From contig CAVRCI010000011.1 of the NCBI GenBank assembly GCA_963719495.1, positions 128,001-192,000 of the forward strand: a DNA stretch of 64,000 nt, written 5' to 3'. A program made the translations under genes and the position numbers. This DNA comes from an uncultured Verrucomicrobiae bacterium (GTDB lineage: Bacteria > Verrucomicrobiota > Verrucomicrobiia > Chthoniobacterales > JAATET01). Shown here piece after piece: positions 38,154 to 47,768 of this stretch. Under the pieces are notes generated by a model, which was not told where the DNA came from, ran no database searches, and worked only from the letters and a program-made list of their open reading frames with translations. The number at the start of each line of letters is the position of its first letter. Positions within the stretch are counted from its first letter, which is position 1.

Positions 38154-39262
38154 TCCGCGTCCTGCACGTCATCGACAGTTTGGACCTCGGTGGGGCGCAG
38201 ACGGCGCTGCTCAATTTGGTGAAATTCACCGATCCGGAGCGCTTCCAGCACGAGGTGGCCGCCATGCACGGGGACGGCTTTTTTGCCGCGGCGTTTCGCG
38301 GAATCGGCGTGCCGGTTCATTCCCTTTCGCGGCGAAAATGGCCTCCAGAATACCTCTGGCGGCTTCCGGGATTGCTCCGGCGGGGGCGGTTCGACGTCGT
38401 CCAATGCCACCTCTTCGGCGCGAACTGGATCGCCAAACCCATCGCCGCCCTCGCGCGCGTGCGGGTCATTTACCACCACGACCAGTGCAACGACGCCTTC
38501 CGGACGGATTCGCGGATTGCCACCTTCGTCGACGCGGCGTTCAACCGTCTCTCGACGCGCGTCCTGGCCGTCTCGCGGTCGGTCGAGCGTTTCGCCGTGG
38601 ACGTGGAAGGCGTCCCCGCCGAGCGCGTGACGTATCTGCCGAACAGCGTCGACCTCACGGTCTTCTCTCCGCCGTCGGAGGTCGAGCGCGCGGCGGCGCG
38701 GCGGCAATTCGGGCTCCCGGAGGCGGGGCTCGTGGTCGGCGCCGTGGGTCGCTTGGTTCATCAGAAAAACTTCGACCTCCTCATCGAGGCGATGCGCTCC
38801 GTGCTGGCGGATCGGGACGACGCGACACTCGCGATCTTCGGAGACGGGCCGGACGCGGCGAGCTTGCGCGGTCTCGCTGCGCCCATGGGGGGCCGAGTGC
38901 GGTTTCTCGGTCGCGTGATCGAGCGGCGGGCCGTGTATGCGGCTCTGGATTTGCTCGTGTTGCCGTCGCGGTTCGAAGGACTACCGATGACGGTGCTCGA
39001 AGCGATGGCGTCGGGTGTCCCGGTCATCGCCACGGCAGTCGACGGGATGATCGAACTCGTGGGGGGAGACCCACGCGCGGCCCGTCTCGTGCCGCCGGGT
39101 GACGTCGCGGGCCTTCGGGAAGCCGTGATCGAACTGCTGAGCGACCGGGACGCGAGGAGCGATCTCGCGGCGGCGGCGCTGCCGCTGGTGCGAACGACTT
39201 TCGATGCCCGGCGGCTGGCGGCACAGCTCGAGGCGCTTTACCAAAGCGATTTGGCGCGATGA
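38150..39262 (+). CDS. Glycosyltransferase family 4
   Basis: L..GGAQ, VGRL..QK, PSRFEGLPMTVLEAMASGVPVIAT. Confidence 0.92.
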   Translation: MIRVLHVIDSLDLGGAQTALLNLVKFTDPERFQHEVAAMHGDGFFAAAFRGIGVPVHSLSRRKWPPEYLWRLPGLLRRGRFDVVQCHLFGANWIAKPIAALARVRVIYHHDQCNDAFRTDSRIATFVDAAFNRLSTRVLAVSRSVERFAVDVEGVPAERVTYLPNSVDLTVFSPPSEVERAAARRQFGLPEAGLVVGAVGRLVHQKNFDLLIEAMRSVLADRDDATLAIFGDGPDAASLRGLAAPMGGRVRFLGRVIERRAVYAALDLLVLPSRFEGLPMTVLEAMASGVPVIATAVDGMIELVGGDPRAARLVPPGDVAGLREAVIELLSDRDARSDLAAAALPLVRTTFDARRLAAQLEALYQSDLAR

Positions 39263-39738
39263 GGCGGTCGCTTGGCGCGCTCTTGTCTTTGCTCGTCGCA
39301 GGCTGCGCCGGAGTGAATTTTCTTCCGGGCGAGGAACCGATTTCCCTCGTCGTCCGCGGCGGGGCTCCGTTTTGGACCTACGGCCCCCAGCAAGCCGGCG
39401 GCCCGAATGAGCGTTTGACGCTTGGCGACCAAATTGCGGTTTTGCGCTGGGAATATGGATTCAGTCGAGTCCAGTTGGAGTCCGGTGCGACCGGATACGT
39501 CGCCAACGAAGACATCGAACCCGCCCCACCCGGGACTCCCCGGCGAATCGCGGTCTCGAACGTCGCGGCACCCCGCCCGCGCGGGCGACCGGTCGACCCG
39601 ATCCCGGCCGCGGTCGAGAATCCCGACCAACCTTCCCGCCCCCGCTACGAGGGCCCGATCGTCGACGACGCCCCGCTCCCGATGCCGGACCCCGACCTCG
39701 ACACCGCCCCGCCGGATGCGCCAGGTGAGTTGTTTTAG
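39259..39738 (+). CDS. Lipoprotein with SH3b-like domain
   Basis: Lipobox VAGC; GFSRVQLESGATGYVANEDI; Pro-rich tail. Confidence 0.7.
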   Translation: MRRSLGALLSLLVAGCAGVNFLPGEEPISLVVRGGAPFWTYGPQQAGGPNERLTLGDQIAVLRWEYGFSRVQLESGATGYVANEDIEPAPPGTPRRIAVSNVAAPRPRGRPVDPIPAAVENPDQPSRPRYEGPIVDDAPLPMPDPDLDTAPPDAPGELF

Positions 39739-39777
39739 CCAGGGGGGAAAAAATCGCCACCCGCAGCGCTGCATCGA

Positions 39778-40101
39778 GGCAAAACTGAACCAATGAACGG
39801 ACTGACCCCTTCGACCGCCAGCGTTGATCGAAAAGACCCCGGTTGCCAATGATCTCGCGCGGGACGGCCTCCAAGCCGTCCTCACCTCCTTGCGCTCTTA
39901 ACCGAAAACCCGCTCAAAACAGTGCCATTCCGGACCCCTTCGACAGTCGCGGCAAAATTGAACCAATGCACGGACTGACCCCTTCGACCGTGCCGAGAAT
40001 GGGTTCCGTTTAGAAAATTGAACCAATGAACGGACTGACCCCTTTGGCGTTTAGAAAATTGAACCAATGAACGGACTGACCCCTTTGGCTGACCCCTTTG
40101 G
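39778..40101 (+). repeat. Left cluster of repeat family B (AAAAYTGAACCAATGMACGGACTGACCCC)
   Basis: Copies at about 39781, 39954, 40014 and 40055 (last two form a 41-bp tandem), a variant at about 39916-39940, and a 13-bp terminal stutter. Confidence 0.92.
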
Positions 40102-40195
40102 CAATGAAACGAACTTGTCACAGTGGGAATGTTGCTGAGCAAAGTGGCGTCCAAGAGTGTTCGTGAGCGGTCAGCGATCCGGTAGGGTCCGAACG

Positions 40196-40211
40196 TGGCA
40201 TGCCTTCTGCT
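40196..40211 (+). promoter_or_regulatory. Putative sigma-54 promoter
   Basis: TGGCATGCCTTCTGCT = GG-N10-GC, about 50 bp upstream of the PEP-CTERM gene. Confidence 0.55.
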
Positions 40212-40258
40212 GATCTCGGGACAAACACGAAACGCGAAAATTCAACCAAACAAACTAA

Positions 40259-40993
40259 ATGACCAAAACACTACTCACAGCAGCCTCCACATTGATTCTT
40301 GCAGCCAGCGGATTACAAGCCCAACTCGTTGCTTTCTCAGGTTTTGAAGCTTCGGGCGATACTTGGGCGGGCGTCTCCGTCTCCGGGACAAACAGCTCCT
40401 TCTCCACTTCACCTGGTTCAAGTGATTCCCCAGCAAACCAGCGAATTCTCGAAGGTAGCCGCTCATGGCAGACTAATGACGGCACTGGAACCGTGAATTT
40501 CGATGCGCTCGATCTGTCGGCCTTTGCGGGGCGATCTTTCGTATTGACTCTACAACTCTCCTCGACGTCAGGCTCTTCTGGGAACGGAGCCGACGTTTCT
40601 GACTACGTCCGCGCCTTCGTAGCCTTGAATGGAGCGGGGTTTTTGGCTAACACGGAGTCAAATGCAGACATCAACTTGTTTGGAAATTCTAACGCCCGCT
40701 GGGGTTACGGATCAGATTTGACGGCGTCGACAGCCGCTGGGACCTCAGCCTCGTTTAGCGCTCCACAGGGTGGAACGAGACCGGAAAATTACTCGACTTT
40801 CTCGATCACAGCTCCAGCCGGGACGACTAGTTTCGACCTACGTCTCATTGCCCTCAACAACAGTAACAATGAATACTGGAACGTCGACAGCGTTTCGCTC
40901 ACAGCCGTCCCTGAGCCGCACCAGTACGCTTTGGGCATTGGTGCTTTGGTCGTTCTCGTGGCGTTCGCTCGCCGCCGCCGACTTTCTGCCTGA
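40259..40993 (+). CDS. PEP-CTERM sorting domain surface protein
   Basis: Signal peptide; C-terminal VPEP, TM helix and RRRR; visibly lower GC than neighbours. Confidence 0.92.
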   Translation: MTKTLLTAASTLILAASGLQAQLVAFSGFEASGDTWAGVSVSGTNSSFSTSPGSSDSPANQRILEGSRSWQTNDGTGTVNFDALDLSAFAGRSFVLTLQLSSTSGSSGNGADVSDYVRAFVALNGAGFLANTESNADINLFGNSNARWGYGSDLTASTAAGTSASFSAPQGGTRPENYSTFSITAPAGTTSFDLRLIALNNSNNEYWNVDSVSLTAVPEPHQYALGIGALVVLVAFARRRRLSA

Positions 40994-41015
40994 ACCGCAA
41001 CCTTACCGACTTTGG

Positions 41016-41049
41016 AAAACCCGCGGGGCGTAAGCCTCGCGGGTTTTTT
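41016..41049 (+). terminator. Rho-independent terminator
   Basis: AAAACCCGCGGGGC-GTAA-GCCTCGCGGGTTTTTT after the PEP-CTERM stop. Confidence 0.85.
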
Positions 41050-41055
41050 GCGTCC

Positions 41056-41289
41056 GTCGAAGGGGTCATCGAAGGTCAAAGTCAAATCAAAGGGGTCAGT
41101 CCGGAATGGCGCTGTTTTAAGCCGATTTTCGGGGGGAAAAGATGGAGACGAAGGGGTCAGTCCGGAATGGCACTGCATTAAGCGAAGGATCGGGATTTGC
41201 CGCGGTGAGGGATTTCTTGGTAGAGAGCGCGAGGAGCGGTGAGATAACTGAAGTTTTTAAAAAAGGGGTCAGTCCGTTCATTGGTTCAG
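41056..41289 (-). repeat. Inverted cluster of repeat family B upstream of RAYT2
   Basis: AGGGGTCAGTCCGGAATGGC at about 41091 and 41152; AGGGGTCAGTCCGTTCATTGGTTCAG at 41264-41289; partial copy at 41056. Confidence 0.9.
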
Positions 41290-41330
41290 AAACGGATTGA
41301 CGGTTGGGACGCTGGTTCGGAGAAGGGCGG

Positions 41331-42329
41331 ATGCCGAGAGCCGTTCGAGTTGAATATGTCGATGCCGTCTATCACGTGATTTGCCGAGGTGATCGGCGGG
41401 AGGCGATTTTCAAGGATGACCGGGATCGGCGAACTTTCTTGAAGACCCTCGCGGAGGTTTGTGAACGAACAGGATGGAGAGTTCGTAGTTACGTGCTGAT
41501 GGACAACCATTACCATCTACTCCTCCACACGCCTGAGCCGAATTTGGTTCGGGGGATGCAGTGGTTTCAAGGGACGTATACGGCGAGATCGAATGCGCGG
41601 CACTGCGAGCGGGGACACCTATTTCAGGGCCGCTACAAAGCGATTCCGATCGAGAGCGAAGCTGGGAGCTACGGGCGAACGGTTAGCGATTACATTCATT
41701 TGAATCCGGCGAGAGCGCGGGTCGTCGACTTCTCCGTGGGCCGACTAGCCGACTACCAATGGAGTAGCTTTCCCCGACTGATCGAGGGAGAAGACTTGCC
41801 AGTTTGGCTCGATCCTGGGGCCGCTATGGCTTCGCACGGATGGTCGTTTCTGGCGGCGCCGGATCGGGCGGCCTACGCAGACTACTTGGAAAGTCGGAGT
41901 AGAGAGGTCGCAGAAAACGAAGGGAATGACGAGCAAAGGACCGAGGTGAAGCGTCGATGGTTTTTGGGAAGCGAAACGTTTCGCGAGAAATTGACGCAGC
42001 TCGCCGCCGAAACGGTGGCAGCGGGTAAGCCAGATTCTTTCGAGCCGCAATCGAGCCAATCTCACGACGAAGATGCGGCGACTCGTCTTTTATCCGAAGG
42101 AATGAAGCGACTTGATCTATCGCCGGAGGTGCTGGCCCGTCTACGCCCAAGCGATCCGCTCGTCCAAGGTTTGATCTGGTCGATCAAGACGCGGACGGTC
42201 ATGGGCGACGAATGGGTGGCTGATCAGATCGGGTGCGGTCACCGAAGTAACATTGGGCGAGCTGTCCGTCGATTTCGGTCGAGCGAAGAAGACTTGGTTC
42301 GGAAGATACGTGAAAAACTGAACCAATGA
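41331..42329 (+). mobile_element. Long-type Y1 HUH transposase (RAYT2) with C-terminal extension
   Basis: MPR..R.EY..AVYHV..RG.RRE.IF.DD.DR, YVLMDNHYHLL (HUH), GHLFQGRYKA, DYIHLNP, YQWSS. Confidence 0.9.
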
Positions 42330-42445
42330 ACGGACTGACCCCTCTGGGTGATAAAAAACTGAACCAATGAACGGACTGACCCCTCTGGGTGATGAAAAAC
42401 TGAACCAATGAACGGACTGACCCCTCTGGTGACCCCTCTGGGTGA
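42311..42445 (+). repeat. Right array of repeat family B: 41-bp unit x3 plus 12-bp stutter
   Basis: CTGAACCAATGAACGGACTGACCCCTCTGG at 42318, 42359 and 42400; TGACCCCTCTGG duplicated. Confidence 0.95.
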
Positions 42446-43384
42446 CTACGCCCGGCGGCAGAGCTCTTGAGCGGCTTCGGGCCAGGTGGGGTGTTGGAAT
42501 GCGAAGCCGCTGGTGGTGAGGTGGCCGGGGGTGACGGTGCGGCTCTTGAGGATGAGCTCGGTTTCGGTGCGGAGGGCGCGGGCTCCGAGTTCGAGCATCC
42601 ATTCCGTCGCAGGGAGGCCGATGGGGACGCCGGTGGCCCGGCGGAGGGCTCGCATGAAGGCGGCGTTGGGGAGGGGATTCGGCGCGGCGAGGTTGATGGG
42701 GCCGGCAAGATTTTCGTGGTCGATGATCCAGCGGGTGGCGGCGATGAAGTCATCTTCGTGGATCCAGGAGACCATTTGGTTGCCGTCTGCGGCGCGTCCG
42801 CCGAGGCCGAGGCGGACGAGATTGCGCAGCACGTCGAAGGCTCCGCCCCGATCGGGGCTCATGACGATGGCGGAGCGGAGGAGGACCTTCCGGGTGCGCG
42901 GGGTTTCGACCTCGTGGGTGGCGCGCTCCCACGCGTTGGCGACGTCGAGGCTGAAGCGCCAGGTGTCGGGGAGATTGGGCTCGTCGCCGCCGAGGATGCC
43001 GGTGGCTTCGTCGTTCGGGGCGTCGTAACGGTGGGCGTAAATCGTGGCGGTGCTGGATTGGAGCCAGATGCGGGGTGGGGTGCTGGCTTTGGCGATGGCC
43101 TCGCCGAGGATGCGGGTGGATTGGACTCGGCTGTCCAGGATGAGGCGGCGGTTGGTGGGGTGGTAGCGGCAGTTGACGCTGCGGCCGGCGAGGCCGATGA
43201 CGACGTCGGCGGATTCGAGTTCGGTTGTCCACGGGCCAAGGGTCTGGGCGTCCCATTGGGTCATTCGCCAGGGGGCGGGGCGGGGTGAGCGGCTGAGGAC
43301 GATGACTTCGTCGCCGAGGTCGTGGTAGGCGCGGGCGAGGAGGGTGCCGACTTGGCCGGTGCCGCCGGCTAGGATGATTTTCAT
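42446..43384 (-). CDS. TIGR01777 family NAD-dependent epimerase-like protein
   Basis: GGTGQVG, LAGRSV.CRY, DSRVQST, Q.VSWIH..D, F.F..P.W. Confidence 0.88.
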   Translation of the reverse strand: MKIILAGGTGQVGTLLARAYHDLGDEVIVLSRSPRPAPWRMTQWDAQTLGPWTTELESADVVIGLAGRSVNCRYHPTNRRLILDSRVQSTRILGEAIAKASTPPRIWLQSSTATIYAHRYDAPNDEATGILGGDEPNLPDTWRFSLDVANAWERATHEVETPRTRKVLLRSAIVMSPDRGGAFDVLRNLVRLGLGGRAADGNQMVSWIHEDDFIAATRWIIDHENLAGPINLAAPNPLPNAAFMRALRRATGVPIGLPATEWMLELGARALRTETELILKSRTVTPGHLTTSGFAFQHPTWPEAAQELCRRA

Positions 43385-43663
43385 GGGGTTGATTTTCTCA
43401 CGCAGAGGCGCGGGGGCGCGAAGGAAATACGAATGCGAATACGGTTCTCACGCCGAAGGGCGAGACACTGGAACCGACGGGGGTCGAGCGAAAGCACCTG
43501 CCGATAGGCAGCCCGAAGGGCGGAGCCGTGGGAACAGCTACGGTAACCGGGAGTGAGCGAGTCATCCGCAGAGGCGAGTCGGGTGAGGGGACCGTTGGGT
43601 GTCGACACCGATCTGGGTGAGGAAGGACATCGTTCCCCGTGGCCAACCTCTGGGAGACGAAAT

Positions 43664-43691
43664 GGGAACCCGGCGGCGCGGCTTCCCTACC
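43664..43691 (-). repeat. REP family C (GTAG-type) single copy overlapping the tyrS stop
   Basis: Reverse complement GGTAGGGAAGCCGCGCCGCCGGG matches the arm at about 47213. Confidence 0.8.
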
Positions 43692-44859
43692 CTTGCCCGA
43701 TGCGGACGGCTCGCTTTTTGTCGAGTTTGAGGGTGCCGGGTTCGGTTGGGTCGAAGGTCGCTTTGGGATCGGTGATCTTTTCTTCCTGCCATTGGATGCT
43801 GCCGCCTTCGACGAGGCGGCGGGCTTCGCTGCGGGTGCGGGTCGTCTGGAAGCAGGTGGCGTAGGCGGCTACGACGATCGAGACGATGTCGCTGGCTTGC
43901 GGGTCGATGGTGAAGTCGGGGAGGTCGGCGCTGGCGAGATCGCGCTGGCTGAAGCGGGTGTTGAAATCGTCGAAAGCGGACTGAGCGGCGTCGGCGGAGT
44001 GGAAGCGGGTGACGAGCCGGCGGGCGAGGGATTTCTTCGCGTCCATGGGGTGGGCGCTGGCGTCGAGGGGTTCGGCGAGGAGGAGGTTGTAGTAATTGGG
44101 CATCACCGCGTCGGGGATGCTCATGATCTTGCCGAACATGTCGTTGGGGGCGTCGTTCACTCCGATGGAATTGCCGAGGCTCTTGCTCATCTTTTTGACG
44201 CCGTCGACGCCTTCGAGGATGGGGAGGAGCATGGCGACCTGCTGCGGTTGGTTCTCGTCCTTCTGGAGGTCGCGGCCGACGAGGATGTTGAAGAGCTGGT
44301 CGGTGCCGCCGAGCTCGACGTCGGCCTGGATCATGACGGAATCCCAGCCTTGCATGATGGGATACTGGATCTCGTGGGCGCGGACGGGCTGGCCGGCGTC
44401 GAGGCGGTCGCGGAAGTCTTCGCGCTGGAGCATTTGTTGGAGGGTGACGCGGCTGTTGAGGCGAATGACCTCCTCGAAGGCCATCATCTCGAACCATTCG
44501 CCGTTGAAGACGACCTTGCAGCGGTCGGTGTCGAGGATTTTGAAGGCCTGCTCCTGGTAGGTGCGGGCGTTGGCGAGAACGTCTTGGTGGGTGAGTTGGG
44601 GCCGGGTGACGGAGCGGCCGCTGGGGTCGCCGATCATGGCGGTGAAGTCGCCGATGATGAGGATGGCTTGGTGGCCGAGGTCTTGAAATTGCCGGAGCTT
44701 GGTGAGGCCGACGGTGTGTCCGAGGTGGATGTCGGGGGCGGTGGGATCGACGCCGAGCTTGATGCGGAGCGGGCGGTCCTCGGCGAGTTTCTTGCGGAGC
44801 TCGGCCTCGGTGGTGACCTGGGCGCAATTGGCGGCGAGGACGGAGAATGGGTCGGACAT
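43687..44859 (-). CDS. tyrS: Tyrosine--tRNA ligase
   Basis: KLGVDPTAPDIHLGH, IGDPSG, ELGGTDQLFN, KMSKS, C-terminal S4 domain. Confidence 0.97.
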   Translation of the reverse strand: MSDPFSVLAANCAQVTTEAELRKKLAEDRPLRIKLGVDPTAPDIHLGHTVGLTKLRQFQDLGHQAILIIGDFTAMIGDPSGRSVTRPQLTHQDVLANARTYQEQAFKILDTDRCKVVFNGEWFEMMAFEEVIRLNSRVTLQQMLQREDFRDRLDAGQPVRAHEIQYPIMQGWDSVMIQADVELGGTDQLFNILVGRDLQKDENQPQQVAMLLPILEGVDGVKKMSKSLGNSIGVNDAPNDMFGKIMSIPDAVMPNYYNLLLAEPLDASAHPMDAKKSLARRLVTRFHSADAAQSAFDDFNTRFSQRDLASADLPDFTIDPQASDIVSIVVAAYATCFQTTRTRSEARRLVEGGSIQWQEEKITDPKATFDPTEPGTLKLDKKRAVRIGQG

Positions 44860-46880: not shown

Positions 46881-47768
46881 CGTCACCGGAGAAGAAGGTG
46901 GGAAGCTCATCGAGCCGCCCCGACCCGAGGGGGTAGGGCAGCCGCGCCGCCGGGTGCCCACTTTGGTTAGGGTTTGCGATCGAAAACGAAGGGCGACCGA
47001 TGGGCTCAGACCGGCGTGGCAGACGAAGCCGTCGAGAAGTTCGCGGGTCCATCGAGGAGGCGACGGCACCCGGGGCCCGGCTGCCCTACCGATTTTTACG
47101 AAGGCGCTGACGCGGTCAGCTCAAGCCGCATCAACTGGAGTAAGCGCTGGGGTCTTTCGAACGTCACCGGAGAAGAAGTGGGGCAGCTCGTCGAACTGCA
47201 CCTACCCGAGGGGGTAGGGAAGCCGCGCCGCCGGGTGCCCACTTTGGTTAGGGGTTGTGATCGAAAACGAAGGGCGACCGATAGGCTCAGACCGGCGTGG
47301 CAGACGAAGCCGTCGAGAAATTCGTGGGTCCATCGAGGAGGCGACGGCACCCGGGGCCCGGCTGCCCTACCGATTTTTACGAAGGTGCTGACGCGGTCAG
47401 CTCGAGCACCATCAATTGGAGTAAGCGCTGGGGTCTTTCGAACCTCACCGGAGAAGAAGTGGGGCAGCTCGTCGAACTGCACCTACCCGAGGGGGTAGGG
47501 CAGCCGCGCCGCCGGGTGCCCACTTTGGTTAGGGTTTGCGATCGAAAACGAAGGGCGACCGATGGGCTCAGACCGGCGTGGCAGACGAAGCCGTCGAGAA
47601 ATTCGTGGTTCCATCGAGGAGGCGACGGCACCCGGGGCCCGGCGGCCCTACCGATTTTTACGAAGGCGCTGACGCGGTCAGCTCGACCAATTTTGATGGA
47701 AGCAGGACGCTGAATAGTCCGAACGTCACCGGAGAAGAAGTGGGGCAGCTCGTCGAACTACACCTACC
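46881..47768. repeat. 281-bp tandem array (about 3.2 units), each unit holding an inverted GTAG-type REP doublet
   Basis: Unit starts at 46881, 47162, 47443 and 47724; arms GGTAGGGCAGCCG..CGGGTGCC and GGCACCCG..CGGCTGCCCTACC. Confidence 0.93.

Follow-up and report, generated by a model that had tools for sequence, protein, structure and literature searches.

A verrucomicrobial TIRtron with a fixed outer boundary at its repeat ends and an exchanged PEP-CTERM gene

The element and its described relatives

Y1 transposase genes flanked by terminal inverted repeats (TIRs) with a GGGGWSAS motif have been named 'TIRtrons' (Di Nocera et al. 2013, PMC3733652). Most of them have been placed in subclass 2.1 of the TnpA-Y1 proteins, with a DnaA-like tail (Quentin et al. 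2018, 10.1101/279083), and the same group constitutes group 1 in the RAYT classification by Bertels et al. (2017, PMC5581495), an equivalence taken from 10.1101/2020.03.09.984088. By size, subclass 2.1 ranks second among the groups of Y1 transposase-like proteins and is present in 14.9% of strains (Quentin et al., 10.1101/279083). Binding and cleavage assays are named as still to do in the accessible text of Di Nocera et al. (PMC3733652), and the two papers that we found to use the name TIRYT show no activity in their accessible parts. Here, we describe a TIRtron, with its transposase TIRYT and a neighbouring gene for a PEP-CTERM surface protein, in a 64,000-nt stretch of DNA from an uncultured Verrucomicrobiae bacterium (positions 128001-192000 of contig C11 of the genome G000), hereafter called the window. 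Comparisons within G000 and with the other genomes of its genus (G001 to G005, of which G003 is the closest relative) indicate that TIRtron ends are joined to variable DNA at a fixed point about five bases outside GGGG, where the Y1 transposase probably nicks. The element itself is known, contrary to a sequence-only reading of the locus that had proposed it as a candidate for an undescribed system. Not described in the papers that we found are the fixed seam at the repeat ends and the exchanged PEP-CTERM cargo.

The TIRYT gene (41331..42329, forward strand, 332 aa) encodes a Y1 HUH core followed by a C-terminal domain with a predicted DnaA domain IV-like fold. The open reading frame (ORF) matches PF01797 (Y1_Tnp) with an E value of 2e-13, and Y1_Tnp is the sole family matching all 119 members of the set of relatives; the named relatives are mostly from Verrucomicrobiota. 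Across these 119 proteins, H60-Y61-H62, Y121 and P126 are invariant and N125 is nearly so, a class-2 Y---NP pattern. In an alignment-based structural model (pLDDT 87, versus 38 for a single-sequence model), residues 1-208 match E. coli TnpA-REP (4ER8), the best fold match (Z 16.4), and residues 248-332 resemble DnaA domain IV (3pvp, Z 11.0, rmsd 2.3, 83 aligned residues; 1j1v, Z 10.9). Four DnaA entries rank above the unrelated ones, yet the match is helical and under Z 13. Pfam, a search within the own genome and hhalign detected no DnaA-C domain in the tail, and a single-sequence PDB search with TIRYT returned no match.

The gene lies within an inverted pair of 26 nt with 100% identity (41264-41289 and 42318-42343), in agreement with the exact pair noticed in the sequence-only reading, and its stop codon falls within the right TIR. 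The GGGGWSAS motif is present as GGGGTCAG at 41265. By eye, the same layout, with the left TIR followed by TTGACG and the stop codon in the right TIR, recurs in homologue loci. These loci provided 33 distinct TIR pairs, and seven further loci have no perfect pair of at least 10 nt; the GGGGTC-type flanks anticipated at homologues are present. No REP (repetitive extragenic palindromic) hairpins stand beside the gene, and the TIRs form a dispersed family with 72 near-exact copies of two main repeat types across G000. The repeat family is not a chance occurrence; G003 yields 24 repeat matches versus 0 for a reversed control. The absence of strong hairpins noted earlier holds for the repeat itself, which folds weakly (z -1.0 for the right one), but not for the left end extended by 12 inner bases, which may form a stem of 10-11 bp (-6.1 kcal/mol, z -3.05).

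The element is thus a TIRtron (TIRYT) of subclass 2.1, as every defining feature tested was found, from the Y1 HUH core and the flanking TIRs to the C-terminal DnaA-C-like extension predicted by the model. It shares with the published TIRtrons, as far as their accessible descriptions go, the Y1 gene between GGGGWSAS TIRs, the overlap of a TIR with the gene end, the lack of REPs, the DnaA-like C-terminus and the dispersal of TIRs as singles, pairs and clusters. In the same accessible text, these descriptions contain no cleavage position, fixed-boundary duplications or deletions, cargo, or targeting by IS4 or IS110. A literature search over listings and abstract openings, outside supplements and subscription papers, likewise yielded no description of fixed-boundary joining or of cargo at TIRYT ends. 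Figure 9 of Di Nocera et al. and the supplementary figures of Quentin et al. may contain flank details.

Other described systems resemble the element in part. The REPtrons (RAYT groups 2-3) were rejected, as GTAG-tagged palindromic flanking REPs were not found and the protein reaches only 54.7 bits against the cut-off of 80 for NF047646; it is also under the cut-off of the other NCBIfam model that it matches, NF033573 (24.9 versus 55). The IS200/IS605 elements, with a short TnpA, Y---Q, subterminal hairpins and no TIRs, were rejected for a protein of 332 aa with Y---NP and TIRs. The model for TnpA-REP and bacterial interspersed mosaic elements (BIMEs; Ton-Hoang et al. 2012, PMC3333891) shares the HUH core (PDB 4ER8). 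It invokes a nick, primed synthesis and attack of the new 3'-OH on the first tyrosine link, which adds a unit, with degradation of the 3' end as a source of variation. In the accessible text, TnpA-REP requires a GTAG hairpin and cuts at C|T at a variable distance (PMC3333891), whereas the element described here has no GTAG hairpin and its junctions are set by distance, not by sequence.

The one-ended rolling-circle elements of the IS91 family are similar in behaviour, since IS801 has one fixed and one variable end, moves or deletes neighbouring DNA and has ends usable in trans (PMC6354349, accessible text). IS801 differs by its ori and ter ends and its tetramer stop sites, GAAC and CAAG (PMC6354349), whereas both ends are here one inverted repeat and pieces accumulate at existing repeats. 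We rejected IS91/ISCR membership: the element works like them in its fixed and variable ends, but an IS91-type transposase and distinct ori and ter were not found. IS91 enzymes are of the Y2 type. An integron, with a tyrosine-recombinase IntI and cassette attC sites with precise boundaries, was rejected as well; no integrase gene lies between the anchors of the locus, the stretch searched for IntI, and the boundaries vary. Lastly, in the TnpA-REP/prochlorosin association, a subclass 2.1 transposase adjoins genes of a family that combines a conserved anchor with a part that is hypervariable, for which diversification was proposed (Laurenceau et al., 10.1101/2020.03.09.984088). No inverted repeats were found in that study, and a later note left causality unresolved (10.1101/2020.03.09.984088); repeats and junctions are explicit here, yet exchange of protein bodies also occurs without the transposase.

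Junctions at the repeat ends and exchanged cargo

The repeat ends have a fixed outer boundary that is independent of the letters at the junction, with little microhomology, no target duplications, stacked stubs and, in a relative, different cargo. Positions at repeat ends are labelled +n, for n nt beyond GACCC, counted outward. Of the 82 pairs of neighbouring GACCC at repeat ends in G000, 30 are perfect tandem duplications. Their shared stretch after GACCC is never shorter than 6 nt; it is exactly 6 nt in 14 of them, and 26 are compatible with +6, while the inner part ranges from 5 to 82 nt. A slippage null with random endpoints predicts 14.2 duplications below 6, and none of its 200,000 runs gave none below 6. 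At protein-selected loci of other genomes, all 14 duplications, from 12 loci, end at 6-14 nt (4.8 expected below 5 under the null, P=0.0015). The corresponding values are 22 of 25 duplications at 6 or more in G003 and 39 of 46 at 5 or more at other loci; this latter set comprises 30 loci chosen beforehand for CCCCT following each of the two copies, and the unbiased, protein-selected set was relied on instead.

Duplications of outer DNA only were found at 1 of 95 ends, and microhomology amounts to 0-1 nt in 24 of 38 junctions. All four bases occur at positions +5 to +8 among 74 flanks, so that we discarded the idea that the flank belongs to the conserved repeat. The flank was not retained as a 5-bp target duplication either, as none was found at CCCC in 31 testable TIRtrons, one of which has a 3-mer at +6. 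Ten junctions to identifiable other DNA, recognized by eye after 199 ends had been queried, begin at +5 to +8. Two of them are in the window, after 39808 and before 41266. A 95-nt stub of the end of an IS4 transposase gene (41165..41259, reverse strand), 100% identical to G000:C2:757155-757249, is severed exactly 6 nt after the GACCC of the left repeat of TIRYT. A fixed floor combined with variable junction letters points to a nick that would be placed by distance and independently of sequence.

The cargo gene (40259..40993, forward strand, inverted relative to G003) codes for a PEP-CTERM surface protein of 244 aa with the tail VPEPH[QE]YALGI. Its Pfam score of 20.6 is just under the cut-off of 20.7, and its GC content is 0.548 versus 0.63 for the genome, in line with the lower-GC gene first noticed between the clusters. 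The sequence-only reading had also given it its own promoter and terminator. An intrinsic-terminator-like hairpin is present (41016..41049, forward strand; 41016-41047 with z -4.8), 9 nt from a GACCC+6 junction. The likely promoter (40116..40210, forward strand) has a TGTCACA box at 40116-40122 and a GG-N10-GC motif of the sigma-54 -24/-12 type at 40196-40210, while a sigma-70 promoter scan found nothing. The same promoter motifs precede the genes of G003, G001 and G004. A -24(GG)/-12(GC) pattern has been described for PEP-CTERM/exosortase substrates (Haft et al. 2006, PMC1569441), which are similarly single-gene units with an upstream sigma-54-type motif, a signal peptide, a diverse body and a PEP tail; the accessible text of that paper describes no link with transposase repeats.

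The anchors and the left repeat are shared with G003, whose alignment to the window ends at GACTGACCCCT. Beyond GACTGACCCCT, G003 carries a different PEP-CTERM gene of 257 aa, on the opposite strand, with only the 34-aa tail in common. The proposal that the repeat ends mark a hotspot at which cargo is exchanged is borne out by this comparison. The G003 locus also harbours an IS110 within a repeat, a stub of IS4, a repeat and promoter in duplicate, and a frameshifted TIRYT that is 69% identical. The body of the window's cargo is absent from the matches in 16 family genomes (79-99% complete), and in these 16 we did not see the same gene in synteny without repeats, which would have contradicted the hotspot. 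Seven full-length relatives of the cargo, with 41-58% identity, are all on short contigs. The four other genus genomes have the left anchor, with no PEP-CTERM gene or TIRYT within 11-12 kb. In G001 and G004, a gene of the PEP-CTERM tail family lies between outward-facing repeats beside the closest TIRYT, at another chromosomal site; this brings the bracketed arrangement to four of the six genus genomes, all four being kin.

The cargo promoters of G003 and G001, at different chromosomal sites, are 91% identical over 384 nt, and the repeat with the 5' part of TIRYT is 96% identical over 605 nt, versus 82% for TIGR01777. The cargo bodies of the two genomes align with 53% identity over the first 84 residues, and matches per 100 columns are 38-65 in the body versus 85-93 in the promoter. 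To call these bodies unrelated, as we had considered, would be too strong given that alignment. G001 stacks stubs of different TIRYT lineages. A separate observation concerns the PEP-CTERM genes at L059:3366-4546, L060:4368-5465, L061:10273-11990, L159:7026-8720 and L160:7098-8836, in which promoter, signal start and tail are kept and the body is replaced. Replacement of PEP-CTERM bodies, with or without repeats, constitutes a domain-swapping slot in the genus.

Another insertion was found by comparing G003 (L092:4544-10173) with G000 (C8:102168-102223). This 5.6-kb insert begins with a repeat array, followed by 2.6 kb that are 94.5% identical to G000 C4:321342-323938 (flanks 83-87%) and by another array with the same orientation. 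By eye, its gene region codes for metallo-hydrolase-like and GTPase-like proteins.

Proposed mechanism and alternatives

Cleavage by HUH enzymes yields a 5'-phosphotyrosine and a free 3'-OH. In the mechanism that we propose, the DnaA-like domain would bind the double-stranded repeat, and the enzyme would nick about 5 nt before GGGG, tentatively on the G-rich strand, and stay on the repeat-side 5' end. The product would depend on which 3'-OH gets ligated. A primed and extended end would give a duplication of the repeat with variable inner DNA. A resected end would lead to deletion of outer DNA, trimming IS4 to stubs and halting at the cargo terminator. An incoming strand end would dock a piece begun at another repeat, such as TIRYT with its upstream PEP-CTERM gene. 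A G-rich-strand nick with the enzyme on the repeat side would explain repeat-including duplications, outward deletions and docking alike; inclusion of the repeat side in duplications at nearly all ends is expected if the 3'-OH is on the outer side. The nick-extend-religate chemistry has been published for TnpA-REP (Ton-Hoang et al., PMC3333891).

At the locus itself, 40102-42347 or a similar piece may have come in as a strand whose start was the right TIR, and been joined to the resident repeat. The flank TTCGA, which accompanies the first left repeats and also stands next to the terminator, suggests that the cargo was later flipped by recombination between inverted repeats. The middle of the cargo would be renewed by ordinary recombination between the conserved promoter and tail, and insertion of IS4 and IS110 into the repeat would add turnover. 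The reading that we favour for the PEP-CTERM gene is that of a passenger of this single TIRYT lineage. Capture of foreign DNA by the enzyme is an inference that we regard as plausible. We are more hesitant, and lean against rather than for it, about the broader idea that TIRYT repeats are general docking sites, at which a sequence-independent nick would be ligated to any free 3' end and neighbouring genes would become stacked. If true, this would represent a widespread route of gene acquisition without integrase, attC or target sequence, by which the surface-protein gene described here would have passed between species. The seams predict the strand and position of the nick and any 3'-OH as acceptor. 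Should this prediction be correct, it would account for the role of these proteins and for the variable DNA at their repeats, and would provide a site-directed single-strand ligase with a sequence-independent junction. Should just the deletion and duplication part be true, it would still be a first mechanistic handle on the family.

Among the alternatives, a passive hotspot would involve a single TIRtron insertion, then IS4 and IS110 insertions into the repeat, recombination between the 25-bp copies and host repair, which would have given rise to the stack and the changed cargo with no repeated action of TIRYT. We consider it unlikely, even though, for 30 of 45 IS4-type ends, the adjoining 11-mer has no more than 3 mismatches to CGGACTGACCC, all five IS110 copies of G000 are inside TIRs, at the same position in more than one repeat family, and the PEP-CTERM bodies of G002, G004 and G005 differ, with repeats absent at this place from two of the three. 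The junctions of IS4 are at +0 and those of IS110 within the repeat, neither of them at +6, homologous recombination or slippage would yield no fixed outer boundary, and most junctions have at most 1 nt of microhomology. Seams of an ordinary two-ended transposon would represent adjacent deletions and failed transpositions, with ends lying about five variable bases outside GGGG, or with a cut on the C-rich or on both strands. This has little probability in our view: near-identical TIR-to-TIR mini-elements at several places, two G001 TIRYT loci alike in their repeat and in their match to the query, and the preference of inner ends for C|T speak for it, but there is no target duplication, the TIRYT copies of G000 are merely 35-40% identical, and duplications contain the repeat side at nearly all ends.

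It is similarly improbable that the outward-facing repeat pair is a dedicated, integron-like platform, namely a receptor for the uptake and replacement of surface-protein genes. The PEP-CTERM family lies between such repeats beside the closest TIRYT in the genus genomes mentioned above, 9 of the 50 PEP-CTERM motifs in G000 are within 3 kb of a repeat (2.1 expected), and PEP-CTERM genes are present at three of six G000 TIRYT loci, versus a background of 8.5% and 8 of 69 multi-copy repeat loci. Nevertheless, the supporting genomes are kin, 41 of the 50 motifs are distant from repeats, and no cassette-borne site was found. The cargo boundaries vary, with 9, 18, 42 and 57 nt from the terminator to the +6 point in four genomes, and the other inserts are metabolic genes or insertion sequence pieces. 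Furthermore, the PEP-CTERM enrichment, modest in G000, is weak elsewhere, such genes being found within ~4 kb at just 2 of the 16 other TIRYT loci in the genus and at 0 of 13 outside the family, a count from which L178 was dropped because its hit is within the TIRYT gene and L101 was excluded as the same DNA as L061. A general PEP-CTERM specialisation of TIRYTs was rejected on these numbers, and with it the surface-protein-specialised system of the sequence-only reading.

Several observations weigh against nicking by TIRYT at a fixed distance and against capture of cargo, the low PEP-CTERM counts at other TIRYT loci being one of them. The 30 duplications of G000 come from fewer arrays and are non-independent, so that the null test overstates. 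In other repeat families, the boundary is spread over 6-14 nt; the floor is general, and the peak is less sharp. Seven of 46 pairs and three of 25 are below 5, several of them being 6-7-nt units or non-TIRs. Thirteen of 38 inner ends are at C|T on the C-rich strand, the cut dinucleotide of E. coli TnpA-REP, which leaves strand polarity unsettled. The flank of the orthologous left repeat is TTCGA in G000 versus TCCCT in G003, contrary to a pure model in which the flank stays with the receptor, and the G003 duplication at this repeat ends at +11. Most identifiable joined donors are interiors of insertion sequences or TIRYTs, and local deletion or duplication suffices to explain them. In G002 and G005, the PEP-CTERM family of the cargo varies as well, and no repeats are present. 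Lastly, a general drop in GC outward of the repeats was discarded, the outward values being no lower than the inward ones (27 of 48 clusters, p=0.36).

Repeat stacks, insertion elements and neighbouring genes

The left chromosomal anchor is a lipoprotein-like gene (39259..39738, forward strand) with a 92% ortholog in G003; its ORF, labelled 'SH3' in the sequence-only reading, matches no Pfam or NCBIfam family. It is followed by a resident 'solo' repeat (39785-39809) with the 5-nt flank TTCGA (39770..39814, forward strand), found at the same place in G003, which reads like the final codons of another TIRYT gene (EAKLNQ and stop). [quoted passage not shown] The segment 39944..40101 (forward strand) is taken up by a further three full repeats (39959, 40019 and 40060) and a short CTGACCCC copy, with flanks TTCGA and TTTGG. 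A second cluster to the left is therefore present as first described, with copies at 39785-40060, but the clusters are stacks rather than pure repeats, with IS4-family stubs at 39815-39930, 41104-41147 and 41165-41259.

On the cargo's other side, the right stack (41057..41164, reverse strand) comprises short repeat copies and half-repeats with flanks TCGAA, TCAAA and ACGAA, and includes the IS4-MITE end stub at 41104-41147. A contig of the sequencing run X1, possibly the source sample or a near strain, carries 41090-41259, at this or another locus, and continues into the remainder of IS4, with different DNA on the outer side. The left TIR (41265-41289) has the flank AAAAA and, directly inside, the -35-like TTGACG (41260..41302, forward strand). 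The right TIR (42318-42342) is accompanied by two full copies, starting at 42359 and 42400, and one short copy, every flank being TCTGG (42318..42445, forward strand). The right chromosomal anchor is a TIGR01777 oxidoreductase gene (42446..43384, reverse strand). No Rfam match was obtained for 39500-43700. Metagenome and viral scans gave 0 matches for the anchor pattern and 1 and 0 matches, respectively, for the repeat, and the sequencing-run contigs, at low cover, contained no joint form at the repeats; among the runs listed as holding this DNA, none was of RNA.

In G000, TIRYT repeats are insertion sites for IS4-family elements and their ~280-bp MITEs, which come with a target duplication of 11 bp (e.g. 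C2:755400-757260 and C6:139299-143183). What we had taken for a second repeat type (GGGGTCAGTCCG-GAATGGCAC) proved to be an IS4 end within the repeat with this duplication. The IS110 copies in TIRs are at C2:757352, C4:310002, C9:184096, and C14:87221 and 89208 in G000, with others at L059:4567 and in L061; a guide RNA of IS110 may target the shared TIR core. Seven TIR-to-TIR mini-elements with ~92 nt between the ends were also found in G000 (C5:99144, C5:99438, C6:135456, C6:139208, C7:43360, C13:501034 and C15:805). Four of them are nearly identical, and they are candidate non-autonomous TIRtrons.

G000 harbours six related TIRYT genes with near-full-length matches, the five other than that of the window being 35-40% identical. 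At C15:2281-5105, a TIRYT gene precedes a series of its own 5'-truncated copies, each attached about 6 nt beyond the preceding GACCC. Y1_Tnp matches were also detected within open frames of 926-1163 codons (C10:2659, C14:101784 and C13:379694). Outward-facing repeats bracket a PEP-CTERM gene next to a different TIRYT at C13:434123-436530 and, at C2:752483-753476, a low-GC gene of 183 aa whose start is signal-like. Finally, a long intergenic repeat unit is present twice at 46974-47498 of the window.

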